Virus record (IMG/VR): IMGVR_UViG_2541047874_000006
Length of the DNA: 17,810 nucleotides
Source of the DNA: a virus
Lineage: Duplodnaviria; Heunggongvirae; Uroviricota; Caudoviricetes
Direction: 5' to 3' (one strand)
Positions 2,710 through 15,575 of the stretch are shown piece after piece (the stretch's first letter is position 1; each line of letters begins with the position of its first letter). The position numbers and the translations under genes are program-made. The notes beneath the pieces were generated by a model, which was not told the DNA's origin, ran no database searches, and worked only from the letters and a program-made list of their open reading frames with translations.

Positions 2710-2903
2710 AATACATCTACAACGGCCCGGCAAGCGGCGTCACCCTTGCCGACGGACAAGAAATCTTATTGTGGCCGAACAGTGAAATTGATCTGCCAGA
2801 AGAAAACGAGTGGGTTATGACCATGATTGCCCGCAATCACCTGACTCCTGTCATCACTCAGGAAGAACAAAATAACGGAGAGGAAATTGTACATGGCAGC
2901 TAA
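2706..2903 (+). CDS. Small phage protein upstream of the sheath gene (Mu gp38 position)
   Basis: 65-aa ORF translationally coupled to both neighbours; acidic C-terminus. Function not recognisable from sequence alone. Confidence 0.4.
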   Translation: MKYIYNGPASGVTLADGQEILLWPNSEIDLPEENEWVMTMIARNHLTPVITQEEQNNGEEIVHGS

Positions 2904-4317
2904 TTACCTGCACGGTGTAGAAACCATTGAAATTGAAACCGGTCCGCGCCCGGTTAAAGCGGTAAAATCCGCTGTAATCGCTTTAATCGGTAGTGCACCA
3001 TGCGGTCCGGTAAACAAACCAACATTGTGCCTTTCTGAAAGCGATGCCGCGCAGTTTGGCTCGACTCAGGCTAACTTTACTATCCCGCAGGCGCTGAAGG
3101 CGATTTATGACCACGGCGCCGGTACGGTGGTGGTGATTAACGTACTGGATCCGGCAAAACATGGCTCCAGCATCAGCAATGAGAGTATCACTTTTGATTC
3201 CAACAACCAGGCAAAACTGGCTCATCGTGCGGTGCGCAATGTCGTCCTGAAACCCTCTTCAACATCAGCCACTACGTATAGCAGCGCAGCGTTTCATGTT
3301 GATGAACAAACAGGAATAATCACTCGTGCAGAAACTGAGATCCCTGCCGGAGCGAAAGTTTGCGCCTATTACTCATGGGCCGATCCAACAAAAGTTACCG
3401 CAGCCGATATTATTGGCGCCGTTAATACCGCAGGCGATCGCACGGGGATGAAACTGCTACAGGATACCTATAACCTGTATGGTTTCTACGCCAAAATCCT
3501 GCTTGCTCCCGTTTTCTGTACGCAAAAATCGGTCACCACCGAACTGATTGCTCAGGCGGAAAAACTCGGTGCTATCGCCTACATTGACGCCCCAATCGGT
3601 ACTACATTCCAGCAGGTACTGGCTGGTCGCGGCTCGAAAGGCGCAATCAACTTCAACACCAGTTCTGACCGTGCGCGTTTGTGCTATCCGCACGTCAAAG
3701 TTTATGACGGCTCAACCAACCAGGAAGTTCTCGAACCGCTATCTTCACGCGCTGCCGGACTGCGTGCCAAAGTAGACCTGGAGAAAGGTTTCTGGTGGAG
3801 CAACTCAAACCAGGAAATTCAGGGCATTATCGGTATCGAACGTTCACTTTCCGCAATGGTTGATGACCCGCAAAGTGAAGTGAATCAGCTCAACGAAAAC
3901 GGCATTACCACTGTTTTCAATAGTTACGGCTCTGGTCTGCGTTTATGGGGCAACCGCACTGCGGCATGGCCAACCGTGACCCATATGCGTAACTTTGAAA
4001 ACGTTCGCCGCACGGGTGATGTGATTAACGAGTCGATCCGTTATTTCAGCCAGCAGTATATCGATATGCCGATTAATCAGGCACTAATTGATGCCCTGAC
4101 CGAGTCGGTAAATACCTGGGGCCGTAAGCTGATTGCCGACGGCGCACTGCTTGGCTTTGAGTGCTGGTACGATCCGGCGCGAAATTCACCGACCGAACTC
4201 AGTGCCGGGCATTTATTGCTGAGCTATAAATTCACCCCGCCACCGCCGCTGGAACGTCTGACGTTTGAAACTGAAATTACCTCTGAATATTTAGTCTCTC
4301 TGGAGAGCAATAGCTAA
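2893..4317 (+). CDS. Contractile tail sheath protein
   Basis: About 474 aa with the conserved sheath N-terminus (ANYLHGVETIEIETGPRPV...SAVIALIGSAP) and a C-terminal LRLWGNRT-type segment; start taken as ATG 2893 after GGAGAGGA, not the TTG at 2887 used in the ORF track. Confidence 0.9.
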   Translation: MAANYLHGVETIEIETGPRPVKAVKSAVIALIGSAPCGPVNKPTLCLSESDAAQFGSTQANFTIPQALKAIYDHGAGTVVVINVLDPAKHGSSISNESITFDSNNQAKLAHRAVRNVVLKPSSTSATTYSSAAFHVDEQTGIITRAETEIPAGAKVCAYYSWADPTKVTAADIIGAVNTAGDRTGMKLLQDTYNLYGFYAKILLAPVFCTQKSVTTELIAQAEKLGAIAYIDAPIGTTFQQVLAGRGSKGAINFNTSSDRARLCYPHVKVYDGSTNQEVLEPLSSRAAGLRAKVDLEKGFWWSNSNQEIQGIIGIERSLSAMVDDPQSEVNQLNENGITTVFNSYGSGLRLWGNRTAAWPTVTHMRNFENVRRTGDVINESIRYFSQQYIDMPINQALIDALTESVNTWGRKLIADGALLGFECWYDPARNSPTELSAGHLLLSYKFTPPPPLERLTFETEITSEYLVSLESNS

Positions 4318-4841
4318 TGGCTGGAAAAATTCAAATTAACCGTATTACCAATGCCAATATTTATCTCGATGGTAATAACCTTTTAGGTCGTGCAACCGAA
4401 ATTAAATTACCGGATGTCAGTTTAATTATGCAGGAGCATAAAGCACTGGGCATGGTCGGCAAAATCGAACTCCCGGCAGGTTTCGATAAACTGGAAGGGG
4501 AAATTAAATGGAACTCCTTTTATCAAGACGTCATGCGTAAAACGGCAAACCCGTGGCAGGCGGTAGCATTACAGTGCCGCTCCAGTATTGATTGCTATAA
4601 CTCCCAGGGGAAAGCGAATCAATTAGCGTTAGTCACTCATTTGACTGTCATGTTTAAAAAGAATCCATTGGGAACATTTAAACAGAATGAAAACCCGGAA
4701 TTCAGCAGCGCCTTTGGTTGTACCTATATTAAACAGGTGGTCGATGGTGAAACGCTGCTGGAACTGGATTACCTGGCGAATATTTTCCGCGTTAACGGCG
4801 TGGATCAATTAAGTACCTATCGCAATAACATCGGTGGCTAA
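4317..4841 (+). CDS. Tail tube protein
   Basis: 174 aa immediately after the sheath gene with TAATG stop/start overlap; size and position typical of the tube protein of Mu/P2-type contractile tails. Confidence 0.8.
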   Translation: MAGKIQINRITNANIYLDGNNLLGRATEIKLPDVSLIMQEHKALGMVGKIELPAGFDKLEGEIKWNSFYQDVMRKTANPWQAVALQCRSSIDCYNSQGKANQLALVTHLTVMFKKNPLGTFKQNENPEFSSAFGCTYIKQVVDGETLLELDYLANIFRVNGVDQLSTYRNNIGG

Positions 4842-4891
4842 GTTATTCGGGGCTACGGCCCCGATTTCCGCATGACCAATAAGGATACAAA

Positions 4892-5209
4892 ATGAAAGAA
4901 CATTATACCTTACAGTTCCCGTTTACTTCAGCGGCGGGAGACGTAATTAACACTCTGCAATTACGTCGCCTGAAAGTAAAAGATATGCGCAACGCGCGCC
5001 GGATCAGCGAAAAACCAGAAGAATGGGATGAACCGCTAATGGCTGCAATGACCGGACTGGTGCCAGAAGATTTAGCTGAAATGGATTTGCTGGATTACCA
5101 GGCATTGCAGAAACGATTTCAATCCATGCTTAGCGTGGCTACAGAATCCGCCACTGTTATGGCAAGCGATGGCGTTACTGGCGAGATGGTTTCGCTTTCC
5201 GCCCAGTGA
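4892..5209 (+). CDS. Tail assembly chaperone (P2 gpE / Mu gp41 position)
   Basis: 105-aa acidic protein between tube and tape measure; AAGGA 6 nt upstream; an overlapping alternate frame is open to 5297 (see findings). Confidence 0.65.
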   Translation: MKEHYTLQFPFTSAAGDVINTLQLRRLKVKDMRNARRISEKPEEWDEPLMAAMTGLVPEDLAEMDLLDYQALQKRFQSMLSVATESATVMASDGVTGEMVSLSAQ

Positions 5210-5284
5210 GATAGACGCCCTTACCGTCGATGACTTTAGCAACTGGCTGGATGAAGCCAACGCCCAAATAAAAATCGAATATGA

Positions 5285-5307
5285 CTCGCAGACCTGATGT
5301 CTGCGAG
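5285..5307 (+). other. Stable RNA hairpin (perfect 9-bp stem CTCGCAGAC/GTCTGCGAG, 5-nt loop)
   Basis: Perfect inverted repeat read directly from the sequence; overlaps the stop of the alternate-frame extension and is followed by TTT and, further on, a T8 run at 5344-5351. Confidence 0.5.
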
Positions 5308-5398
5308 TTTCCCAAGCCCGTCAGGTTTATTTCTTCCCTGCCCTTTTTTTTAGAAAAATAACCAGCGGGCCATTATCAATATTTAAAGAGAAACAATT

Positions 5399-7759
5399 TT
5401 GGCCAACGATATTATTACCCAGCTTCAGGCGCGTAATGAGACGTTGACGCAGGCAATAGCCCGTTACGGCTCACTCAACGCCAGAACATTGTTAACTCTC
5501 TCTACTCAGCAAGCGACAGTTATCAAACTAACGCAGCGACTTGCCGATTCCGCTCTCCGCCTGGAGGAAAATAGCCGCAGCCGCGCTAATCTGATGGAGA
5601 AAACCCAAACATTTGCCGGGCAATTTAGCAAAGTATTCAATGTTGAAGCCCCCGACTGGAAGTTGCCGTATGAGTTTCAGGACAATATGGTCAATATGGC
5701 GACCAAAGGTGGGATGAGTGATGCCACTCGCGAGACGCTCAGCCTTAATCTGCGCGACTGGAGTATGGATTTTAACCAGCAGCAGACCACGTTACAGTCC
5801 GCCGCTCTGACCTTAGTTGAAGGCAACATATCGTCTTTGCAGGATCTCAACCGCTATATGCCCGAGATCGCCAAAGCCGCCACCGCCACGCGCGACAGCG
5901 CCGAAACATGGGCGAAAGCCGCGCTCGCGACTCATGATCGACTGAATATTGCCCCGGAAAATTTCCACGCTGCGCAAAACATGATGTACAGCGTTACCAA
6001 AAGCGGTGGGCCTGCCATTGCCGAACAAACGCAGTGGATAGAGAAATTTGCAGGTAAAACCGGCGCTCAGGGTCTGGAAGGTATGGCTGAACTGACCGCC
6101 ACCATGCAGATCGCCATGAAAAACGGTGCCAGCGCCAGTGCAGCGGCGGAGAATTTCGACCATTTTCTACAAACCACATTTTCGAAAAAAACCGATAACT
6201 GGTTCGCCAGCCAGGGCGTCGATCTGCAAGGTTCTCTGCTGGAGCATCAGCAAAACGGTATGGGTGTTAGCGAAGCTATGACTCATATCGTGCAAATGCA
6301 GCTTGAGAAGATGAATCCGGCGATCCTCGATACCTTCAAACGCACCATGCAGATTGAAGATTTATCTGCCCGCAGCAATGCGCTGCAATCGATGGTGACG
6401 CAGTTTAATCTGGGCGAAATGTTCGGCGATGCGCAAACGGTGGAATTCCTGGCCCCTATGCTGGCGAACATGGAAGAGTATCGCCAGCTAAAAGCCTCTG
6501 CCATGCAAGCCACCAGCAAGAATCTGATTGATGCCGACTTTTCTGCGCAAATGGCTTCGCCCATTGAACAGACTAAAGCGTTACAACTGGCGTTAAATGA
6601 TTTATGGCTCAGCATTGGCTTGCAGCTTATGCCGGCGATTGGCGAGCTGGCGCAAAGCCTTGCGCCGGTTATTCGCCAGTTCAGCGCCTGGCTACGCGAA
6701 CACCCGGCACTAGTGCAAAACATTGCGAAAATCGTCGGGGCGATTTGGCTGTTTAACGGTGCGCTGAATGTTTTAAAGCTGGGCGCGAACTTCATCGCCT
6801 CGCCGTTTATTCGTCTGGTCGATATCTTCCTGAAAGTCAGGGCAAGTCTGGCGCTCGGAGGCGCAGCGAGTAAGGTGCTATCGGCGGTTAAGTCATTGGG
6901 TGGCGGCGCAAAATGGCTAACGCAACTGCTTGGTCGTGGCCTGAGCGGAGCATTGAAACTGGTTGGTCGGACCGTTCTCTCACTAGGCCGGGTGCTACTG
7001 ATGAATCCCATTGGTCTGGTCATCACTGCGATTGCGGGCGCGGCTTATCTGATTTATCGCAACTGGGAACCTATCACCAGGTTCTTTTCCGCCATCTGGA
7101 AACGTATTACCACGGCCTTTGACGGTGGCATTGCAGGTATTAGCCGGTTGATTCTCGACTGGTCGCCACTGGGGCTGTTCTACAGCGCCTTTTCCGGTGT
7201 GATGAATTGGTTTGGTGTTGAGATGCCTGCGAGTTTTAGCGAGTTCGGCAGCAATATACTGGGTAGCCTGGCCGACGGCATAATGAATGCTTTCCCCGCT
7301 CTGAAAGGCATTATTGATCAGGTCAAAAACGCCATGCCAGACTGGCTAAAAGCCACAATGGGGATCGGCACAGAAGCATCGGCTGCGACTGTTACAGGCA
7401 CGACTAATACCGCATCAGTCTCCCCCGCGACCGTTGTTCCAGGCGTTGCCGGTGCGCTTTTAACGCCGCCTGTGGGCAAACAACTCGCGCCATCCAGCAA
7501 AACGACAACGCCGTCATCGGCGCCAGTGGCAAAACCCGCGTCGGCCTCTTTACCAGGTAAATCCGTAACCAAACCGGCGACGCTACCCCCCCGTTCCCCA
7601 GGAAAAGTCCAGGTGAATTTTTCGCCACAAATTACCGTGCAGGGTAACGGACAAAACACCACTAAAGACATTCAGAACGTGTTGACGATGAGTAAACGCG
7701 AACTGGAAAGAATGATTAACGACGTAATGGCGCAGCAACAGCGCCGGGGGTATGCCTGA
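5399..7759 (+). CDS. Tail tape measure protein
   Basis: 786 aa, coiled-coil N-terminus, hydrophobic central segments, Pro/Ser/Thr-rich C-terminal region; apparent TTG start at 5399 with AAAGAG upstream; located between chaperone and baseplate genes. Confidence 0.85.
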   Translation: MANDIITQLQARNETLTQAIARYGSLNARTLLTLSTQQATVIKLTQRLADSALRLEENSRSRANLMEKTQTFAGQFSKVFNVEAPDWKLPYEFQDNMVNMATKGGMSDATRETLSLNLRDWSMDFNQQQTTLQSAALTLVEGNISSLQDLNRYMPEIAKAATATRDSAETWAKAALATHDRLNIAPENFHAAQNMMYSVTKSGGPAIAEQTQWIEKFAGKTGAQGLEGMAELTATMQIAMKNGASASAAAENFDHFLQTTFSKKTDNWFASQGVDLQGSLLEHQQNGMGVSEAMTHIVQMQLEKMNPAILDTFKRTMQIEDLSARSNALQSMVTQFNLGEMFGDAQTVEFLAPMLANMEEYRQLKASAMQATSKNLIDADFSAQMASPIEQTKALQLALNDLWLSIGLQLMPAIGELAQSLAPVIRQFSAWLREHPALVQNIAKIVGAIWLFNGALNVLKLGANFIASPFIRLVDIFLKVRASLALGGAASKVLSAVKSLGGGAKWLTQLLGRGLSGALKLVGRTVLSLGRVLLMNPIGLVITAIAGAAYLIYRNWEPITRFFSAIWKRITTAFDGGIAGISRLILDWSPLGLFYSAFSGVMNWFGVEMPASFSEFGSNILGSLADGIMNAFPALKGIIDQVKNAMPDWLKATMGIGTEASAATVTGTTNTASVSPATVVPGVAGALLTPPVGKQLAPSSKTTTPSSAPVAKPASASLPGKSVTKPATLPPRSPGKVQVNFSPQITVQGNGQNTTKDIQNVLTMSKRELERMINDVMAQQQRRGYA

Positions 7760-8712
7760 TGTATGCCGTTTTAGGAGAGATTGAATTTAAGGTTGTCACA
7801 TTCTGGGACGGCTTTAAAAGCACAATGGGCGTGGATTACGCCACACATGCCCGTATTGAAGGCAAACCTGGCGTGCAGTTTATTGGCGATAAGCTGGACA
7901 TGCTGGCGCTGGAATTTTCCCTGCACAGCCAGTTTTGCCAACCCACAACAGAGCTGAATCGACTGCGTGAAGCCATGCTTGCCCACAAAGCAATGGCGCT
8001 GGTGTTTGGCAACGGTGATTATCGCGGCTGGTTTGTAATTACAGAGTTAACCGCCACTCACCAGCACACCGATCCCTGGGGCAATGTCATTGCCCAAAGC
8101 GGAACAATGTCGCTCCAGGAGTATACCGGCGATCCGAAAAACCCACTCCTGCCCCCGGCGATTACCACCCAGGAGCCTAATATTGACGAAAAGGCGAGCG
8201 ATTTTCCGGACAAGGTGGAGTCCTGGTTGGATCAGATATTGAACGCCATTGAAGAAGGTATGCGCAAAGCCAAAGAGATGCTCGATGAACTGGCGCAATC
8301 CATTGAAGATATTAAAAAAACAGTGGCAAAGGTTAAAGCACTGATTAAAGAGGCCAAAGCGTTAAAAGAAAAGTGTGAAAAGATAATTACGTCGTTGAAA
8401 AAGACTATCGATGCCATCGAAACCCTGTTTAAACAGCCGATGGATCTGCAAACGCTGGCAGGATTACCAAAAGCGTTGTCGGCGCAGATTAAAGCATTGC
8501 TGGGTAGCCTGCCGGGTATCCGCGACTGCGCCAAAGACGCCGGGACACTGGTTGACCATGCACAAGAACTGTTTGGCAGCATCACCAGCGCCATCGCCGA
8601 AGCAACTTTCGATAAAGCCACAACGTTGGTTGAGCAGGCGCGTACAACGGTACAGCAAACCACTCCCGCAGTGACTCAGCTCGCTGCCGCGACCATTACG
8701 AGGAGCTGGTAA
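7759..8712 (+). CDS. DNA circularization protein N-like tail protein (Mu gpN family)
   Basis: 317 aa; position after the tape measure with ATGA overlap; coiled-coil C-terminal half. Confidence 0.7.
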   Translation: MYAVLGEIEFKVVTFWDGFKSTMGVDYATHARIEGKPGVQFIGDKLDMLALEFSLHSQFCQPTTELNRLREAMLAHKAMALVFGNGDYRGWFVITELTATHQHTDPWGNVIAQSGTMSLQEYTGDPKNPLLPPAITTQEPNIDEKASDFPDKVESWLDQILNAIEEGMRKAKEMLDELAQSIEDIKKTVAKVKALIKEAKALKEKCEKIITSLKKTIDAIETLFKQPMDLQTLAGLPKALSAQIKALLGSLPGIRDCAKDAGTLVDHAQELFGSITSAIAEATFDKATTLVEQARTTVQQTTPAVTQLAAATITRSW

Positions 8713-8921
8713 TGCGATACCTTGAACATATCACCACCGACGGCGAACGCTGGGATAACCTGGCATGGCATTACTACGGTGATGCACTGGCTTATGAACG
8801 CATTATCGCCGCCAATCCACATGTCGCCATTTATCCGGTACTGCCTGCCGGTATTCAGCTCATTATTCCGGTCATTACCGTCAACAAGACCGTATCGGAG
8901 ATCCCACCATGGCTGAGATAA
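8712..8921 (+). CDS. Tail protein X-like (LysM-like small tail protein)
   Basis: 69 aa; pattern D.L....YYGD.....ERIIAANP......LPAG..L.IP resembles the P2 gpX family as recalled; TAATG overlap with the upstream gene. Confidence 0.65.
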   Translation: MRYLEHITTDGERWDNLAWHYYGDALAYERIIAANPHVAIYPVLPAGIQLIIPVITVNKTVSEIPPWLR

Positions 8922-9949
8922 GCGTAACTGGCGGCGTCTTTGCCACGCTCGCGCCCATTTTTACCCTCTGGTATGGGCATAAAGATATCACTTATGACAT
9001 CACGCCTTATGTCACCAGCATCAGTTACCAGGACAGTATTAAAAACGAGTCGGATACCATCGCGATTACACTGGATGACACCGATGGACGCTGGATAAAA
9101 GAGTGGTATCCCGGCAAAGGCGATACGCTGGCGCTGCACATAGGTTATCAGGGGGAAAAACTGCTCGATTGTGGTCAATATATCATTGATAAAATTGACA
9201 TTTCAGCACCACCTTCCACGGTAAATATTGATGGCATCGCCACTTCCGTCAATCAGGCGCTGCGCACCCGTAACAGTCAGGGCTTTGAAGAGACAACGCT
9301 TTCAGCCATCGCCAGCCGTATCGCGCAAACTCACGGCCTGACGCTGGTGGGCAAAATCGAGCCGCTGACGATTGACCGGGTGACACAGTACGGCGAAACC
9401 GATGTCGGATTTCTCAAGCGCCTGGCCAGCGAATATGGCTATGCGGTAAAGGTGACCACCAAAGAACTGATTTTTTCGCATTTACCCACGCTGCGCTGCC
9501 TGGCGCCGGTGAAAAAGATCGACCGCAAAGACGTTTCGCATTTCACCTTCAAAGATACCATTAACCGCATCTACAAAAACGCCACCGTACAGCATCAAAA
9601 TAGTAAGAAAAAAGAACTGGTTATCTACACTCACGACAGCCAGAAAAAGCCGTCTGCCCGTGGAGTCGGCACCAGTGCCGACACGCTGAAACTGAACAGT
9701 CGGGCGCCGGACGTTGGCGCGGCGCAGGCAAAGGCCAACGCCGCGCTCGACAGCCACAACGAATATCAACAAACCGGAACGCTCAGGATGATGGGCTGCC
9801 CGGAACTGACGGCAGGCAATAAAATCGAGCTAACCGATTTTGGTGTACTTTCCGGTCAGTGGCTGATTGATAAATCGACTCACAGTTTTGTGCGCAGCGG
9901 CTATATCACTGAAATCGACATTTCACGCGGGCCAGCAACCAGCCAGTAA
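8909..9949 (+). CDS. Baseplate hub protein (P2 gpD / Mu gpP-like)
   Basis: 346 aa at the position of Mu P / P2 D; overlaps the upstream gene by 13 nt. Confidence 0.75.
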   Translation: MAEISVTGGVFATLAPIFTLWYGHKDITYDITPYVTSISYQDSIKNESDTIAITLDDTDGRWIKEWYPGKGDTLALHIGYQGEKLLDCGQYIIDKIDISAPPSTVNIDGIATSVNQALRTRNSQGFEETTLSAIASRIAQTHGLTLVGKIEPLTIDRVTQYGETDVGFLKRLASEYGYAVKVTTKELIFSHLPTLRCLAPVKKIDRKDVSHFTFKDTINRIYKNATVQHQNSKKKELVIYTHDSQKKPSARGVGTSADTLKLNSRAPDVGAAQAKANAALDSHNEYQQTGTLRMMGCPELTAGNKIELTDFGVLSGQWLIDKSTHSFVRSGYITEIDISRGPATSQ

Positions 9950-9958
9950 GGAGGCAAT

Positions 9959-10660
9959 ATGAAAGGAGTAACCCGGCAAACGGGGATTATCAGCGATATT
10001 GACGAAACCAGCGTTCGGGTGCGGGTCACGCTACCAGAGTGTGACAATCTGAAGAGTAACTGGCTTGCGGTGCTGCAGCGCAATTCTCAGGACAATAAGG
10101 ATTACTGGCTACCGGATATGGGCGAACAGGTGGAAGTTCTGCTGGATGATAACGGTGAAGATGGCGTGGTGCTGGGCGCAGTATATTCAACGGTAGACAC
10201 TGCGCCAGTAGCATCGCGCGACAAACGCTATGTCCAGTTTTCTGATGGCGCAGCGTTTGAATATGACCGCAGCACCCACCAGCTTACGATTAATGGTGGC
10301 ATCGAAAAAATCGTGATTGAGGTTATTGACCGTACCAGCCTGACATCGCCCAACGTTGAGGTTAAAGCCCAACACGTCACCGTGACTTCCGACACTGTTG
10401 ATGTGAAAGCCACCGATGTCAGCATTGAAGCCAGTAAGGTCGATGTTAAAGCGGCAGCAGTGACGGTAGATGCGCCCATGAGCACCTTTACCGGCAACGT
10501 CACGGTGATGAAAAAACTCACCTGGCTTGGTGGCATGGCAGGAAGTGGAGGCATCGGCAACGCCGCCACGATAACCGGCAATGTCAACGTGATTGGTAAC
10601 GTTCAGGCCAGCGGCACATTGCAGGACAGCGGTGGCAACTCCAACCACCATTCACACTGA
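9959..10660 (+). CDS. Baseplate spike/assembly protein V-like (Mu gp45 family)
   Basis: 233 aa; N-terminal region with the GEQVEVLLDDNGEDGVVLGAVY motif typical of gpV-type spikes, then repeated V.VKA..V.V strands suggesting a beta-helix. Confidence 0.75.
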   Translation: MKGVTRQTGIISDIDETSVRVRVTLPECDNLKSNWLAVLQRNSQDNKDYWLPDMGEQVEVLLDDNGEDGVVLGAVYSTVDTAPVASRDKRYVQFSDGAAFEYDRSTHQLTINGGIEKIVIEVIDRTSLTSPNVEVKAQHVTVTSDTVDVKATDVSIEASKVDVKAAAVTVDAPMSTFTGNVTVMKKLTWLGGMAGSGGIGNAATITGNVNVIGNVQASGTLQDSGGNSNHHSH

Positions 10661-10665
10661 CGTTT

Positions 10666-10695
10666 AACCCGCCTGATGGCGGGTTTTCTCTTTTT
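10666..10695 (+). terminator. Intrinsic terminator-like hairpin inside the baseplate gene block
   Basis: AACCCGCC (10666-10673), loop TGAT, GGCGGGTT (10678-10685), then TTCTCTTTTT; lies in the 98-bp gap between the spike gene and the wedge gene. Confidence 0.5.
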
Positions 10696-10758
10696 AATCA
10701 ATCAGTTTTCTAAATCGCTTTAATATCCCCGCCGCCTGTTCAGGGCGAAAATACCCTC

Positions 10759-11118
10759 ATGAACACGAAAACACGCCCCTCTACGCTGCACTGGCAACCC
10801 GCCTTGCAGCGGCCTGAAGAATACGTCTGCGGACTGGATGATATTCACCAGGCAATACACATCATTCTGCGCACACCGCGCGGCAGTGATCCCCACAGAC
10901 CGCTGTTTGGCAGCAACTTGTGGCACTACATCGATTATCCCATCGAGCGGGCGATCCCGCATGTGGTAAGGGAGTCGGTAGAGGCCATCCGCCAGTGGGA
11001 ACCGCGCTGCCGGTTGCTGAAGGTGACACCGGTAATCGACGGGGAACATCTGACGTTACGTGTGCAATGGCGCGCCGCTGACGGCGTAATCAACTCAACG
11101 GAGGTGTTATGGCGATAG
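10759..11118 (+). CDS. Baseplate wedge protein, GPW/gp25 family
   Basis: 119 aa with the conserved segment GLDDIHQAIHIILRTPRGSDPHRPLFGSNLWHYID typical of P2 gpW / T4 gp25-like proteins. Confidence 0.8.
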   Translation: MNTKTRPSTLHWQPALQRPEEYVCGLDDIHQAIHIILRTPRGSDPHRPLFGSNLWHYIDYPIERAIPHVVRESVEAIRQWEPRCRLLKVTPVIDGEHLTLRVQWRAADGVINSTEVLWR

Positions 11119-12224
11119 CCGAACCCGATTTTATTGACCGCGATCCTGCGCAAATTACCAGCGAGATGATTGCGCAGTACGAAGATGCCAGCGGCAAAAA
11201 GCTCTACCCGGCACAGGCCGAGCGGTTGCTGATTGACCTTTTTGCCTATCGTGAAAACCTTGTACGCATCGCCATTCAGGAAGTGGCGAAACAGAATCTG
11301 GTCGCGTATTCCCGCGCGCCAATGCTGGATTATTTAGGTGAGCTGGTGGGCGTTCACCGCTTACCTGCACAACCGGCAAAAACCACGTTGCAGTTTTCGG
11401 TAGCCAGTAAGAATCGAAATAACATTCTAATTCCACAAGGAACACGTGCCAGCGCCTCTGACAGCGTGATGTTTGCTACCGATGAAGATGTTCTGATTCC
11501 GGCGGGAAGTTTGCATATAGCCGTTCCCGCCACCAGTCTGGCAACAGGCGAAGCGGGCAATGGCTGGCAGCCTGCACAGATTAGCGCCCTTGTTGACAGG
11601 ATTGGTTATTACGATATCAGCGTGACCAACCTGACGGCCTCAACCGGCGGCTGCGGTGAAGAGAGCGATGACGCACTACGCCAGCGGATCCAACTGGCGC
11701 CGGAAAGTTTCAGCAATGCGGGCAGCTATGGTGCCTACCGCTTTCATACGCTTTCCGTAAGCCAGTCGATTATTGACGTCGCGGTACTGGGGCCGGACGA
11801 AGGATTGCCAGAAGGCTGCGTGGAGATCTACCCGCTAACGCTGAATGGTCTGCCGGGCGTGGAACTGCTCGCGCAAATTGAACTGGAGGTTAGCAAGGAG
11901 AAAAAACGTCCGCTGACCGACAAAGTAAGTGCGAAATGCGCCGTTAGGGTGCCGTATGAAATCCGTGCGCAGCTCACACTGTTTACCACTGCCGATCAGG
12001 AGACAACGCTGGCTGCGGCGCGTAAAGCGATTAGCCTCTGGACGCAACAGCGGCAGAAACATCTGGGACAGGACATTGTGCCAAACCAGATAATCAAAGT
12101 GTTACAAGTCGATGGTGTCTATGACGTTGCGCTGAATATACCTACAAAACGTATTTTGCAGGCGCATGAGTGGGCGGAATGCACCGCGATAGACGTCACG
12201 ATTGCCGGAGTCAGCGATGGATAA
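11109..12224 (+). CDS. Baseplate J-like protein (Mu gp47 / P2 gpJ family)
   Basis: 371 aa; GGAGG upstream; position and size match baseplate J; overlaps both neighbours. Confidence 0.8.
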   Translation: MAIAEPDFIDRDPAQITSEMIAQYEDASGKKLYPAQAERLLIDLFAYRENLVRIAIQEVAKQNLVAYSRAPMLDYLGELVGVHRLPAQPAKTTLQFSVASKNRNNILIPQGTRASASDSVMFATDEDVLIPAGSLHIAVPATSLATGEAGNGWQPAQISALVDRIGYYDISVTNLTASTGGCGEESDDALRQRIQLAPESFSNAGSYGAYRFHTLSVSQSIIDVAVLGPDEGLPEGCVEIYPLTLNGLPGVELLAQIELEVSKEKKRPLTDKVSAKCAVRVPYEIRAQLTLFTTADQETTLAAARKAISLWTQQRQKHLGQDIVPNQIIKVLQVDGVYDVALNIPTKRILQAHEWAECTAIDVTIAGVSDG

Positions 12225-12582
12225 ATTGCTGCCGCCACCGCCGCTTGCCAGCGATGAGCGTTTTTCAACTCTGGCAAATATCGCTGCCGAGCGTTTTGCC
12301 CAACTCGATCTGACAGCGTTGATGGTTTATCTGGTAGACCTGGTTGATGCTTCGGCATTACCTGCCCTTGCAGAACAATTTCACGTTCAGGGGCTGGAAG
12401 GTTGGTTATTTACCACTGATGAACGGGAGAAGCGCGATTTAATTAAGCAAGCCATTGAGCTGCATAAATATAAAGGAACGATTTGGGCGGTACGGCGGGT
12501 GCTGGAAATACTTTCGCTACCAGGAACTATTTCAGAATGGTTTGAATATGGGGGGAAGGCTTATTTTTTAAGGTTGATATAG
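12202..12582 (+). pseudogene. Tail protein I-like (Mu gp48 / P2 gpI family), N-terminal part; frame discontinuity at a G6 run
   Basis: Probable start ATG 12217 (MDKLLPPPPLA, GGAG upstream). The frame ends at 12582 while the -1 frame is open from 12546 and continues as the next ORF. Possible frameshifted gene or two genes. Confidence 0.5.
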
Positions 12583-12587
12583 AGCTG

Positions 12588-12848
12588 GTGGATAAAGGCA
12601 TGGATGAAAACCTTTTCAATAATCTGGTAGAACTCATTCATGAATATAAAAACACACGTTCAAAACTGGAAGCATTAATTGTCTGGATCATTAACCAAAG
12701 TGCTATTCCTGTTATTGGCTGTGCACTTTATGGTGGTGAACTGACGACGGTTTTACCTTTCCAGATACGGGAAGTACAGCAAAACACATCAATCTATTAC
12801 GGAACAGGGCAATGGAGCCTTGAAATTACATCTATTTACCCGGAGTAA
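12588..12848 (+). CDS. Hypothetical protein, or C-terminal portion of the tail protein I-like gene
   Basis: 86-aa ORF in the -1 frame relative to the preceding gene; lower GC by eye; stop lies inside the RBS-ATG spacer of the tail fiber gene. Confidence 0.4.
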   Translation: MDKGMDENLFNNLVELIHEYKNTRSKLEALIVWIINQSAIPVIGCALYGGELTTVLPFQIREVQQNTSIYYGTGQWSLEITSIYPE

Positions 12849-12850
12849 TT

Positions 12851-14620
12851 ATGGATAATGAGTTTTATACTCTACTCACCGACAGAGGGATGGCAAAAAT
12901 TGCCAATGCTCTGGCGGATAAAAAACAGCTTCATCTACAAAAAATGGCTGTTGGCGACAGCGGAGGGCAATATTATGAACCCACCGTCCGCCAAACTAAA
13001 TTACGTCATGAAGTATGGCGTGGTGATTTAAATACATTAACAGTTGCGCCCAATAATCCTAACTGGTTAATTGCGGAACTTGTACTGCCCGAAAATATCG
13101 GCGGCTGGTATGTACGTGAAGTCGGCGTTTTTGATACTGACGGTGAACTCATTGCTATCGGTAAATTCCCGGAGTCGTATAAACCGCTATTACCCGGCGG
13201 CAGCGGTAAGCAAGTTTGCATTCGTCTCATTATGGAAGTTTCCAATACGACAGCGGTAACACTCACCGTTGACCCCAGTATTGTGCTGGCAACACGGGAT
13301 TATGTTGATTCGCAACTGGATGAACATGAACGTTCGACTAATCACCCTGATGCTACGTTATCGCAAAAAGGCTTTACGCAGTTAAGTAACGCCACTGACA
13401 GTGATGACGAAACCAAAGCGGCTACGCCAAAAGCGGTGAAAGCGGCGATGATTGAGGCACGAAATCATCGTCATACCTGGAGTCAGATTACTGATATTCC
13501 GGATAGTACGCTGACGCAAAAAGGGATTGTGAAGCTTAGTAACGCGATTGATAGCACCAGCACGACAGAGGCGGCAACACCGAGCGCGGTGAAGGCGGCG
13601 TATGACCTGGCGAATAGTAAGGCTGCGGGAAACCATACTCACCCATGGGGACAGATTACGGGTGTTCCAGACGGCACCCTGTCGCAAAAAGGGATTGTGA
13701 AGCTTAATAATGCGACGGATAGCAACAGTACGACGGAGGCGGCTACGCCGAGTGCGGTGAAAGCGGCGTATGACCTGGCAAATGGAAAGGCTGCAGGTAG
13801 TCATACGCACCCCTGGGGGCAGATTACGGGTATTCCGGATGGCACCCTGACGCAAAAAGGGATTGTGAAGCTTAGTAATGCGACGGATAGCAACAGTACG
13901 ACGGAGGCGGCTACGCCAAGTGCGGTGAAGGCGGCGTATGATAAAGCCTGTGAGGCATATAGCAGGATTAACAATTCCTCATTCCGCTTCTATACATCAA
14001 ATGGAACATTTACCGTGCCGACTGGAGTAACAGAAATACTTCTGGAAATGTCAGGCGGTGGTGGGGGCGGTGGTGGTGGGGCAATCGCCGGAGGCTCGAC
14101 AGTGGTACAACCTAAATTTGGACTAGGCGGCGGAGCAGGAAAACCTGGTGAAATTATAATTACTCCTCTCACAGTTAAACCCGGAGATATGTACTCCTTT
14201 ACAGTTGGGGCTGGAGGGGCTGGAGGGGCTGGAGGCACACAGGTAAGACCAGAGAGTGGTTCGACTTGGATTCCCAGAGATGAATTAGGACAAGCAGGTA
14301 TTCCTGGAGCGGCATCATATTTTTCCTCACTTACTGCTTCCGGTGGTGCTGGTGGGGAAGGAGGGAAAATAATAATTATCGACTCCCCGTACGCCAACTC
14401 AGTAGGAGAGGTTCCCAAAACATACTCCAGCAACGGTGAAACTGCAGTAAATACTCCTTATGGAAAAGGGGGATTGGGAGGAGCGAATAGTGATGGCCAA
14501 TCCGGCTCTGGTTATGGTGCGGGAGGTGGGGGAGGGGCTGGTTTAGGATCAACTTCGATAAACCACGCTGCCCGCAATGGCGGTCGTGGCTTGGGTGGTT
14601 ATATAAAAATTTTATGGTGA
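12851..14620 (+). CDS. Tail fiber protein with internal tandem repeats and a glycine-rich C-terminal domain
   Basis: 589 aa; N-terminus (MAVGDSGG...EVWRGDL...LIAELVLPENIGGWYVREVGVFD...FPESYKP) matches the conserved N-terminal domain of Mu S / P2 H / E. coli Stf fibers; four repeats of TL(S/T)QKGIVKLSNATDS..TTEAATPSAVKAAYD; C-terminal 190 aa rich in Gly runs. Confidence 0.85.
   Translation: MDNEFYTLLTDRGMAKIANALADKKQLHLQKMAVGDSGGQYYEPTVRQTKLRHEVWRGDLNTLTVAPNNPNWLIAELVLPENIGGWYVREVGVFDTDGELIAIGKFPESYKPLLPGGSGKQVCIRLIMEVSNTTAVTLTVDPSIVLATRDYVDSQLDEHERSTNHPDATLSQKGFTQLSNATDSDDETKAATPKAVKAAMIEARNHRHTWSQITDIPDSTLTQKGIVKLSNAIDSTSTTEAATPSAVKAAYDLANSKAAGNHTHPWGQITGVPDGTLSQKGIVKLNNATDSNSTTEAATPSAVKAAYDLANGKAAGSHTHPWGQITGIPDGTLTQKGIVKLSNATDSNSTTEAATPSAVKAAYDKACEAYSRINNSSFRFYTSNGTFTVPTGVTEILLEMSGGGGGGGGGAIAGGSTVVQPKFGLGGGAGKPGEIIITPLTVKPGDMYSFTVGAGGAGGAGGTQVRPESGSTWIPRDELGQAGIPGAASYFSSLTASGGAGGEGGKIIIIDSPYANSVGEVPKTYSSNGETAVNTPYGKGGLGGANSDGQSGSGYGAGGGGGAGLGSTSINHAARNGGRGLGGYIKILW
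13340..13960 (+). repeat. Four tandem coding repeats (153-168 bp period) inside the tail fiber gene
   Basis: CGCAAAAAG occurs at 13362, 13515, 13683 and 13851; copies 3 and 4 are nearly identical at the nucleotide level. Confidence 0.7.
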
Positions 14621-14624
14621 ACAG

Positions 14625-15230
14625 ATGACACGATATGCGTATTACCATCCGGTAACCTTTGAGGTTATTGACTGGATAGATGCAGCCTCTTTTACTGTGG
14701 AATTACCTGATTCAGTAATTCCTGTAGATGATGAGCAGTGGCAGTTAAAAGATAAACCATGCTGGATATGTCTTGACCCATTCAAAATTATCACCACACC
14801 ACCGCCGGGTGATTTTTACATCTTAGAGAATGATAAATGGGTATATGACAAAACATTATTTACCATTGCACTTGAGAATACCAAGGCACAGGTTACACAG
14901 GAAATAAAAAATCGACGTGATGAAATAACGGTAGATTACATCATCATCAACAACCATCACTTCCACAGTGATACAAATAGCCGTATCCAACAGCTCTCGC
15001 TCACTAAAATGGGAGCGGAGAAAAAAATCCTTCCAGGTTTAATGTGGAAAACTAAAAATAACGGTCTGATTGAGTTAACCAACGAAATCGCTTCCCAGTT
15101 TGAATCGGTAACAATGGATCACGATATGCGCCTGTTCGCCAACGCCCAGCGCCATATCGCGGCGGTGGAAGCTCTGGACGATATTCAGGCGGTGCTCGAC
15201 TACGACTACTCCACAGGCTGGCAACCATGA
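14625..15230 (+). CDS. Tail fiber assembly protein (Tfa; Mu gpU / P2 gpG family)
   Basis: 201 aa immediately after the tail fiber gene; AT-rich; conserved C-terminal region typical of Tfa chaperones. Confidence 0.75.
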   Translation: MTRYAYYHPVTFEVIDWIDAASFTVELPDSVIPVDDEQWQLKDKPCWICLDPFKIITTPPPGDFYILENDKWVYDKTLFTIALENTKAQVTQEIKNRRDEITVDYIIINNHHFHSDTNSRIQQLSLTKMGAEKKILPGLMWKTKNNGLIELTNEIASQFESVTMDHDMRLFANAQRHIAAVEALDDIQAVLDYDYSTGWQP

Positions 15231-15553
15231 GTAAAACCACTGTCTGGCTCGCTTGTTATAAGGGCCGAACAGAGCACCGTGGTATTGCCCGACTGGCTGA
15301 CTGGCTTACCCGTAAAATCACACGCGGTAGTTATTCCCACTGTGAATTAGCCGTTAAGCATGGTGAAAATAGTTACCTTTGTTACTCTGCATCACTGCGC
15401 GATCGCGGTGTACGCGAAAAGATAATGCCATTGCCAGCGGATAAGTGGGATATGCTGCCGCTCCAGGCCAGCCTTCAGGATGTGGAAACTTTTTTCCGTA
15501 AACATGATGGCAAAAAATATGACTGGCGCGGAGCATTAGGAGAGCCTGTTTAA
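15227..15553 (+). pseudogene. Gene truncated by IS insertion (5' portion; last three codons and stop supplied by the IS end)
   Basis: ATGA overlap with tfa; the ORF runs into the IS terminal repeat, which contributes residues EPV and the stop. The original reading frame resumes after the IS at 16865. Confidence 0.6.
15534..15541. repeat. Target-site duplication CATTAGGA (left copy)
   Basis: Identical 8-mer directly flanks both IS ends (15534-15541 and 16857-16864). Confidence 0.65.
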
Positions 15554-15575
15554 GATTCTGTGTAAATGCCTTTTC

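Follow-up and report, generated by a model that had tools for sequence, protein, structure and literature searches.

A predicted terminator and Mor-type promoter between the spike and wedge genes of a headless BcepMu-like tail cluster

The contractile-tail genes of a headless, phage-derived element very likely form two transcription units under a single activator, separated by an intrinsic terminator and a Mor-type promoter that are located between the spike gene (V) and the wedge gene (W). We analyzed IMG/VR record IMGVR_UViG_2541047874_000006, a stretch of 17,810 nucleotides (hereafter, the window), and conclude that the V-W gap probably holds a functional terminator-promoter pair. A division of the tail cluster into two transcription units at this point had been proposed in a sequence-only reading of the window, and the comparison with homologous clusters, in which the promoter module and, among the enterobacterial elements, the terminator are conserved, favors that proposal. 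Very probably, this is a two-operon tail layout of the kind known from phage Mu, an ordinary design except that the second message would start at the start codon.

In the scheme that we propose, the late region is built from modules that each begin with a Mor-type activator-dependent promoter and, in this lineage, end with an intrinsic terminator. Transcripts from the promoter of the Gp37 gene would end at the hairpin and U tract after V. The activator would bind the dyad that follows, occupying the place of the missing -35 element, and recruit sigma-70 RNA polymerase to a weak -10 hexamer, GAAAAT. Transcription would then start at 10759, yielding a leaderless mRNA for the wedge, J, I, fiber, and fiber-assembly genes. 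We infer the activator binding, the action of the terminator, and the exact 5' end in this scheme. The coordinates of the features are collected in Table 1.

Table 1. Genes and predicted regulatory features of the window, with the Mu Pm promoter for comparison
Feature	Position	Strand	Details
Mor-family activator gene	1-348	minus	PF08765
Further dyad in the holin leader	803-816	plus	TTAA-N6-TTAT
Possible third promoter, holin	815-858	plus	ATTAA-AGCTTT-TTTCA (815-830), 22 nt, GACACT (853-858)
Holin, SLT transglycosylase, membrane protein	886-2107	plus	
Terminator-like hairpin and T6 closing the lysis cassette	2112-2145	plus	directly before the Gp37 promoter
Predicted Gp37 (tail operon 1) promoter	2164-2207	plus	TCTAA-ATCACA-TTAAA (2164-2179), 22 nt, CAGAAT (2202-2207)
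Gp37	2254-2709	plus	
Sheath, tube, chaperone, tape measure, gpU-like, X, gpD hub, gpV spike	2887-10660	plus	
gpV spike gene (V)	9959-10660	plus	
V-W gap	10661-10758		98 nt
Putative intrinsic terminator after V	10666-10695	plus	8-bp stem, 4-nt loop, then TTCTCTTTTT
A/T-rich upstream element	10696-10708	plus	AATCAATCAGTTT; TCAA at about -61 to -58
Predicted Mor-family binding site	10709-10724	plus	dyad TCTAA-ATCGCT-TTAAT, 5+6+5 layout; 22 nt to the hexamer
-10-like hexamer	10747-10752	plus	GAAAAT; consensus match 4/6, including A2 and T6
GPW/gp25 wedge gene (W), heading the predicted tail operon 2	10759-11118	plus	PF04965
GPW/gp25 wedge, J, I, fiber, fiber-assembly genes	10759-15553	plus	
IS transposase	15576-16784	minus	
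Mu Pm			AGTAA-AGCCGG-TTAAT, 22 nt, TATCCT

The element and its activator

Judging by its genes, the window derives from a BcepMu-like transposable phage and is headless, with a lysis cassette and a contractile tail and without head or replication genes; the Mor-family late activator of the phage is retained. The contractile-tail cluster was recognized by Pfam scans combined with comparison to annotated genomes. The homologous locus of E. coli (95% identity), present in 197 of the 5426 complete genomes (about 3.6%), is located between lysC and yjbD and consists only of the Mor gene, the holin, SLT, and membrane protein genes, and tail genes; genes for head, packaging, and replication are missing, and the Pfam matches in the window fit this composition. 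LT2-type strains of Salmonella also carry the element. A chromosomal location and the combination of tail, lysis, and regulator genes without those for head, packaging, and replication are typical of R-type tailocins; given this gene content, the window element appears to be tailocin-like. In the literature searched, we found no description of the E. coli/Salmonella element as a tailocin; the 'tailocin' of ST131 is a prophage with an R2-pyocin-related tail, and that report contains nothing on promoters or on the lysC locus (PMC9205054).

The complete relatives are BcepMu-like transposable phages, namely, BcepMu itself and a full prophage in E. coli OkiPb01694 that carries a transposase, a MuB-like ATPase, Com, and Mom. 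The copy of the element in this particular window may no longer be functional because gene I is frameshifted and the last open reading frame is interrupted and truncated by an IS element.

The minus-strand gene at the beginning of the window encodes a protein of 115 amino acids that matches the Mor family over its full length (E = 7e-38). This protein is 55% identical to the single Mor-family protein of the complete BcepMu-like E. coli prophage, 49% identical to the 'late transcriptional activator' gp01 of BcepMu, and 30-34% identical to Mu Mor and Mu C. The recognition-helix region LQWIYK is common to the window, prophage, and BcepMu proteins (NLTLQWIYK in the first two and GVSLQWIYK in BcepMu). 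BcepMu and the E. coli prophage each possess one close homologue of the activator, and in both, the holin, head-protease, chaperone, and wedge genes are preceded by the dyad found in the window. For Pandoraea and Chromobacterium, the available 10-kb flanks ended short of any Mor homologue, and the beta-proteobacterial BcepMu served instead. From this co-occurrence and the analogy with Mu, the product of this gene is the presumed activator of the window promoters. A LexA box at 570-589 adjoins the regulator gene, where it may repress one of two overlapping promoters, and the activator is probably under SOS control.

Terminator and promoter in the spike-wedge gap

The V-W gap had been described as the only sizeable intergenic gap inside the tail block, which holds for true gaps: the interval 5209-5399 is not counted because, in the annotation of a relative, the tail chaperone extends into it by frameshift. 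Also borne out is the GC-rich 8-bp stem followed by a T-rich run, the only strong terminator-like site in the window. The hairpin, AACCCGCC-TGAT-GGCGGGTT (10666-10685), begins 6 nt past the V stop codon; its stem contains 6 GC pairs, and TTCTCTTTTT comes directly after GGGTT. The fold has a dG of -15.3 kcal/mol (z = -4.6), and none of 200 shuffles was equally stable. This is the best plus-strand terminator candidate in the window and, under strict criteria (a perfect stem of at least 7 bp with at least 5 GC pairs, and at least 7 T in the next 11 nt), the sole site on either strand; any site of this kind occurs in only 4% of Markov-random windows. On the minus strand, no T run follows the hairpin. 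A stable GC-rich stem-loop with a U-rich tract 3' of it, placed after a stop codon, is the signature of an intrinsic terminator, and we infer such a function for 10666-10695.

In the enterobacterial lineages, the hairpin core CCCGCC/GGCGGG and the T run are kept, both inside a gap of 50-53 nt, whereas the loops and inner pairs vary (CCCGCCG-CAA-CGGCGGG, CCCGCCG-TCA-CGGCGGG, and others). In some E. coli, the terminator is weaker (dG -11.1). It is confined to the enterobacterial headless elements: in the phage relatives, V and W are not separated by a terminator, and the dyad either overlaps the V stop codon or is within 16 nt of it (-2 to 16 nt). From this distribution, the promoter is ancestral, and the chromosomal elements acquired the terminator later. 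Given that the phages lack the hairpin and some E. coli have a weaker version, it may stop only part of the transcripts, with read-through being likely.

The hairpin and its T tract are followed by the A/T-rich element, the 16-bp dyad and, 22 nt downstream of the latter, the hexamer GAAAAT. There is no -35 element: TATCCC at the expected place matches the consensus in only 2 of 6 positions. No sigma-70 consensus promoter was detected on the plus strand of the gap, as expected for an activator-dependent promoter. The TCAA and T tract before the dyad are kept in the enterobacterial and Chromobacterium wedge promoters as well as in the Gp37 leaders; the element is placed where the alpha-CTD footprint of Mu Pm lies and may have the same role.

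The sequence-only reading had pointed to short elements shared with the leader of the first tail operon. One of these, TTTTCTAAATC, is indeed found at 10706-10716, where it comprises the T tract, the left half-site, and the beginning of the spacer; its counterpart TTTTCTCTAAATC occupies 2159-2171 rather than 2158-2171. The other, AATACCCT, was said to stand directly before both start codons; in fact, 1 nt and 2 nt intervene (10750-10757 and 2244-2251, respectively, the only copies within the window). At 10750-10757, it consists of the end of the hexamer and the discriminator; in the Gp37 leader, CAGAATAC (2202-2209) takes the corresponding position. Outside E. coli, no relative shares the copy at 2244-2251, and AATACCCT was rejected as a functional element before both ATGs. 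Within the window, neither element is significantly enriched: TTTTCTAAATC with up to 2 mismatches occurs 6 times versus 6.2 expected, and AATACCCT twice versus 0.34 expected, a count reached by 13 of 200 shuffles. The case for TTTTCTAAATC is made not by these counts but by the conserved module in the relatives.

We retrieved 18 related genome loci (Phytobacter, Dryocola, Superficieibacter, Pandoraea, and Chromobacterium) along with 80 IMG/VR loci. The shared wedge module consists of (T/C)CTAA-N6-TTAA(T/A), 22 nt of variable, GC-rich sequence, xAxxAT, 6 (rarely 7) nt, and the ATG. It is present in every natural relative examined that had enough upstream DNA. These relatives, which belong to Enterobacteriaceae, Pandoraea, and Chromobacterium and include Burkholderia phage BcepMu, amount to about 60 distinct sequences, so that the module extends from gamma- to beta-proteobacteria, with the intervening spacer sequence varying. 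Among the distinct IMG/VR upstream sequences, 40 of 41 contain the module, the single exception being a pET cloning/expression construct. A regular-expression search for TAA-N6-TTAA-N22-24-xAxxAT on both strands of about 390 kb (the window and 19 related loci) returned 32 matches versus 0.3 in shuffles, and all but one of these (31 of 32) share the strand of the tail genes and precede late genes, among them those for the wedge, Gp37, and the chaperone. A position weight matrix trained on the related loci scores 60.7 at 10711, a value inflated by the near-identical enterobacterial wedge promoters in the training set, and 28.3 at 2166, compared with a maximum of 0.4 in shuffled windows.

The dyad and hexamer of the Gp37 leader are equally spaced in 7 enterobacterial relatives although the spacer varies, and the relatives' module precedes a 40-100 nt UTR with a Shine-Dalgarno sequence. 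In the window, the Gp37 promoter is predicted to start near 2214-2215, which would leave a UTR of about 40 nt with the Shine-Dalgarno sequence AAGGA. The hairpin at 2112-2139, which closes the lysis cassette just upstream, folds with a dG of -15.5 kcal/mol (z = -4.2; 0 of 200 shuffles equally stable). Analogous hairpins with T runs, judged by eye rather than folded, are present in Phytobacter, Superficieibacter, and Salmonella, and the hairpin is deleted in E. coli KK19. The site before the holin gene keeps the exact register of the other window sites and of Mu Pm. Superficieibacter shares it, and the holin promoters of BcepMu and the E. coli prophage contain the full dyad; its matrix score is the third in the window and no higher than the shuffle maximum. 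This site is a possible third promoter, a weaker form of the same module. The dyad and hexamer also precede the chaperone gene in Pandoraea and Chromobacterium; a chaperone-gene promoter like those of BcepMu, Pandoraea, and the E. coli prophage was not found in the window with the matrix.

The target of Mor and C in phage Mu is an imperfect dyad of 16 bp, in which 6 bp of GC-rich spacer separate two 5-bp repeats; it is centered at -43.5 (-51 to -36 in Pm), in promoters that have a -10 but no -35 element (PMC4390567, PMC2582627, PMC4287176). In Pm open complexes, the bottom-strand T at -12, -4, -1, +1, +3, and +4 is permanganate-reactive (PMC4390567, PMC4287176), and alpha-CTD contacts A/T-rich DNA at -59 to -61 (PMC4287176). 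When the published Pm coordinates were placed on the Mu sequence, fixing +1, the three window sites and the BcepMu sites aligned with Pm column for column. The elements, their conservation, and their spacing are directly visible in these alignments, and the geometry is identical to that of Mu Pm. The center of the wedge dyad is at -42.5 if +1 is 10759 and at -43.5 if +1 is 10760. Like the promoters of the Pm class, the window combines a 16-bp dyad, a -10 hexamer without a -35 element, and a Mor/C protein encoded in the same element. Given the Pm geometry, the co-occurrence of the activator, and the lack of a sigma-70 promoter, 10709-10752 is likely a Mor-type activator-dependent promoter, with binding and activation presumed by analogy. 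The second promoter suspected here in the sequence-only reading is related to the Gp37 leader through the conserved module, as had been suggested; it would be of the Mor/C activator-dependent type, not a free-standing sigma-70 promoter.

Sequence comparison further indicates that the V-W junction is a module boundary. In the LT2-type loci of Salmonella, gtrABC (3.3 kb) is located exactly between the V stop codon and an intact wedge promoter. At other loci, 0.3-2.9 kb, in some cases 2.2-2.9 kb, is inserted between the V stop codon and the dyad; Phytobacter has a REP-like insert at the junction and Dryocola an ERIC-like one. The wedge promoter is intact in each cargo-bearing locus. The breaks in megablast homology at 10661 and 10697 mirror these insertions.

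The wedge start and alternative readings

On balance, we predict that the wedge mRNA is leaderless and starts with the A of the ATG at 10759, because the hexamer ends 6 nt before the ATG, with C at -1 and A at +1 and with the canonical spacing of 7 nt. Canonically, transcription starts 7 nt after the hexamer, with a pyrimidine at -1 and a purine at +1. When upstream sequences were extracted from the ATG position alone, xAxxAT was found at -12 to -7 in 37 of the 40 distinct natural IMG/VR sequences, and one nt further upstream in the other three; the hexamer is also present in all genome loci examined. Across about 60 sequences, whose proteins have diverged to about 50% identity, the distance between the hexamer and the ATG is 6 (rarely 7) nt. 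The wedge start codon is ATG in every relative examined, and the preceding base is C in nearly all. There is no Shine-Dalgarno sequence before the wedge ATG in the window and none consistently placed in the relatives, and from the TAA at 10711 up to 10759, the window sequence contains no alternative start in frame; conservation of the wedge protein sets in at its N terminus, with the ATG at 10759. The wedge gene thus shows the sequence features of a leaderless message, that is, an ATG, no Shine-Dalgarno sequence, and a -10 element 6-8 nt upstream, whereas the promoters of the same type before other genes are followed by variable UTRs of 20-100 nt with a Shine-Dalgarno sequence. Strict analogy with Pm, where +1 is the eighth nucleotide after the hexamer, would place +1 at 10760, the T of the ATG.

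The predicted 5' end at 10759 lies just beyond the interval 10696-10758, in which the sequence-only reading expected a 5' end; transcript mapping confined to that interval could therefore be falsely negative.

We lean slightly towards the view that, in BcepMu-like phages and their tailocin-like derivatives, a leaderless wedge mRNA, with its 5' AUG set by a Mor-type activator-dependent promoter, is fixed across gamma- and beta-proteobacteria. If so, the synthesis of the wedge and fiber proteins would require promoter-initiated transcripts, and read-through would be translationally silent for the first gene; the V-W junction would also be a preferred landing site for cargo such as the O-antigen modification operon gtrABC of Salmonella.

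It seems unlikely that the -10 element is instead TAATAT (10721-10726) within the dyad block, with the mRNA running from near 10733 and starting with a 25-nt leader that contains a small GC hairpin, followed by a start codon without a Shine-Dalgarno sequence. In favor of this reading, TAATAT agrees with the -10 consensus at 4 of 6 positions (A2 and T6 among them), the enterobacterial, Pandoraea, and BcepMu wedge promoters all keep it, and a hairpin at 10733-10747 does appear in the fold. However, at the same position, the Chromobacterium wedge promoter and all Gp37, holin, and chaperone promoters have TTAAAAG or TTAAC, without the essential A2 and T6, and in the alignment with Mu Pm, the conserved block falls on the mapped Mor site rather than on the -10. 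Furthermore, the downstream xAxxAT is found at the fixed distance even where no ATG follows, and is therefore a promoter element. The hairpins in the spacer are no more stable than those of shuffles and are out of register between lineages, and the invariant 6-nt distance to the ATG would be left unexplained.

More improbable still is the possibility that only the hairpin is functional, as a terminator, attenuator, or mRNA stabilizer, with W expressed through read-through from the Gp37 promoter and the conserved block acting as a translational or RNA signal. In the phage relatives, where the V stop codon overlaps or abuts the block and the V-W terminator is missing, read-through transcripts certainly cover the block, and in Phytobacter and Salmonella, REP-like elements are found where the window has its hairpin. 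The block itself, however, is a DNA-type dyad with helical-phase spacing to the -10 hexamer. It precedes unrelated genes, those for the holin, head protease, and chaperone, and it survives 2-3 kb of foreign cargo, with a 3' hairpin of its own, that separates it from V. Moreover, W lacks a Shine-Dalgarno sequence and translational coupling, starting 45-98 nt after the V stop codon, and neither a conserved RNA structure nor an Rfam match was found in the gap. Chance similarity of the leaders in AT-rich intergenic DNA, with the gap carrying only a terminator, accords with the within-window counts of TTTTCTAAATC and AATACCCT and the unconserved copy of the latter, and is refuted by the excess of pattern matches, the IMG/VR module count, and the matrix scores.

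An RNA element was also considered for the V-W gap as a separate candidate and was rejected: Rfam at gathering thresholds gave no match anywhere in the whole window, and the GC-rich spacer hairpins do not exceed shuffles in stability and do not keep register.

The terminator followed by a Mor-type promoter would yield a concrete regulatory map, with one Mor-family activator, two or three promoters with the operator TAA-N6-TTAA, and insulating terminators. With the operator consensus, the late promoters of tailocins and BcepMu-like phages can be annotated. For tailocin engineering, the map would place the fiber genes in the second unit, in need of the activator and an intact 5' AUG. The terminator-promoter junction would also explain why foreign cargo such as gtrABC is located exactly there. 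That a structural operon appears leaderless over so broad a phylogenetic range is a minor point but a genuinely odd one.

Relation to known systems

Among the closest known systems are BcepMu and the BcepMu-like prophages. They share with the window the gene order, homologous Gp37, V, W, J, and I genes, a single Mor-family 'late transcriptional activator', and a wedge ATG located 6 nt after the hexamer; unlike the window element, they are complete transposable phages and lack the V-W terminator. We found no description of the BcepMu late promoters in the literature searched, and no transcription start sites for the Salmonella homologue (STM4203 to STM4219) in the start-site tables and literature searched.

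The element also resembles the R-pyocins of Pseudomonas, which are likewise chromosomal, headless contractile tails with their own lysis cassette and a dedicated positive regulator. R-pyocins, however, are controlled by PrtN and PrtR and have P2-like ancestry, whereas the window has a Mor/C activator and BcepMu-like ancestry, with a direct LexA box in place of a PrtR-type repressor.

The predicted leaderless start has a precedent in phage lambda. The cI mRNA from PRM is leaderless, with the -10 element about 7 nt before the ATG that is also +1, no Shine-Dalgarno sequence, and dependence on an activator. The window gene differs from cI in being a structural baseplate gene at the head of a long operon, and the arrangement, with a 5' end that is a prediction, is conserved across two proteobacterial classes.

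The late region of Mu, like that proposed for the window, is organized in several activator-dependent morphogenetic units, one of which, from PP, starts inside the tail/baseplate block, and the Mu record has predicted terminators directly before Pm, Plys, and PI. The details differ. The C sites of Mu are of the CATAAyCCC type, unlike the TAA-N6-TTAA of the window. PP is internal to gene N and precedes the hub gene P, whereas the predicted window promoter is at the spike/wedge junction; in Mu, the genes at that junction (gp45/gp46) overlap, with no gap and no promoter annotated in the record.

A close parallel is Mu Pm. Pm and the predicted wedge promoter have in common the 5+6+5 dyad with near-identical half-sites (AGTAA/TTAAT versus TCTAA/TTAAT), an A/T-rich stretch just upstream, 22 nt to a weak -10 element, and no -35 element. 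Both are accompanied by an activator of the same Pfam family, although the window protein has 115 amino acids versus 129 in Mor and is only 30% identical to it, and by a terminator-like hairpin at or before the promoter. What is expressed from Pm is the late activator gene C, via a UTR of about 24 nt, as calculated from the annotated Mu coordinates; the wedge promoter, unlike Pm, would drive structural genes directly, with an apparent start at the ATG.

LexA box between the activator and holin genes

The sequence TACTGTATGTGCATACAGTA at 570-589, a near-consensus LexA box and the only occurrence of CTGT-N8-ACAG in the window, is located between the holin gene and the Mor-family gene that encodes the presumed activator of the Mor-type promoters. 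The box is retained at the homologous locus of E. coli KK19, with CTGT and ACAG unchanged and two changes in the N8 centre (ATGTGCAT in the window, ATGCACAT in KK19). Because the box overlaps the -10 elements of both a rightward promoter-like sequence and its leftward mirror that faces the activator gene (see table), its position suggests that the entire cascade is under SOS control.

Coordinates of promoter-like sequences, dyads and inserted elements
Feature	Position	Remarks
Rightward promoter-like sequence, TTTACA-16-TACAGT	561-588	-10 overlapped by LexA box
Leftward mirror, TTTACA-16-TACTGT	611-584	Directed toward activator gene; -10 overlapped by LexA box
Holin leader dyad 1, TTAA-N6-TTAT	803-816	
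Holin leader dyad 2, TTAA-N6-TTTC	816-829	Adjoins dyad 1
IS element	15541-16800	Region holding the insertion; Mutator-family transposase at 15576-16784, minus strand
gtrABC region, Salmonella Infantis SARB27 (L024)	8737-12063	LT2 tags STM4203-4207

Predicted Mor-type promoters and their spacing

The holin leader contains two dyads, the second of which, together with GACACT (853-858), is in exactly the register of the phage Mu middle promoter, Pm. The stretch 803-858 may be a third promoter of the Mor type, weaker or differently regulated.

A hexamer followed after 6 nt by ATG occurs at additional genes in the Chromobacterium loci L011 (17065), L012 (17166) and L017 (19354). In phage BcepMu (L023, 18813-18870), the head protease gene gp32 is annotated to start at an ATGATG that shares bases with the predicted -10 hexamer GATGAT, and a third ATG lies 7 nt past the hexamer. 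This third ATG looks like the real start, in which case the gp32 mRNA, like that predicted for the wedge gene, would be leaderless. In wedge-type promoters, the spacer of 22-23 nt (10724-10746 in the window, and homologues) is GC-rich in most lineages (GC fraction 0.48-0.91), including the enterobacterial leaders, which are otherwise AT-rich (0.57-0.74 in the spacer); the Gp37-type spacers of the same enterobacterial elements are, for the most part, AT-rich.

Disrupted reading frames and probable contaminant sequences

In the P2 gpI-like baseplate gene (12217-12849), a run of T at about 12564-12570 has lost 1 nt (T6 compared to T7 in E. coli KK19), resulting in a frameshift and a premature stop; either the gene is a pseudogene or the missing base is a homopolymer sequencing error. 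An IS element interrupts the ORF that ends the tail cluster, leaving 108 aa compared to 151 aa in KK19.

In the 'viral contig' L047 (IMGVR_UViG_3300050189_000002), a pET-type T7 promoter, lac operator and RBS (GGGGAATTGTGAGCGGATAACAATTCCCCTCTAGAAATAATTTTGTTTAACTTTAAGAAGGAGATATACCATG) are fused to the wedge gene; this is a cloning construct contaminating the collection. The tail genes on contig L002 (JAEZCC010000043.1; 6.6 kb, labelled 'MAG: Bacillota bacterium') are enterobacterial: identity to the window is 94-100% for V, W, J and I and 64-75% for the fibre and fibre-assembly genes, and the gap sequence is almost identical. The contig is probably a binning contaminant.

Cargo at the spike-wedge junction

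The junction between the spike (V) and wedge (W) genes accommodates cargo of 2.2-2.9 kb in three relatives (L079, L080 and L082). In the homologous Salmonella element, exactly this gap is occupied by gtrABC (STM4204-4206), a characterised O-antigen glucosylation operon that is followed by a REP-like hairpin, with the wedge promoter intact downstream.
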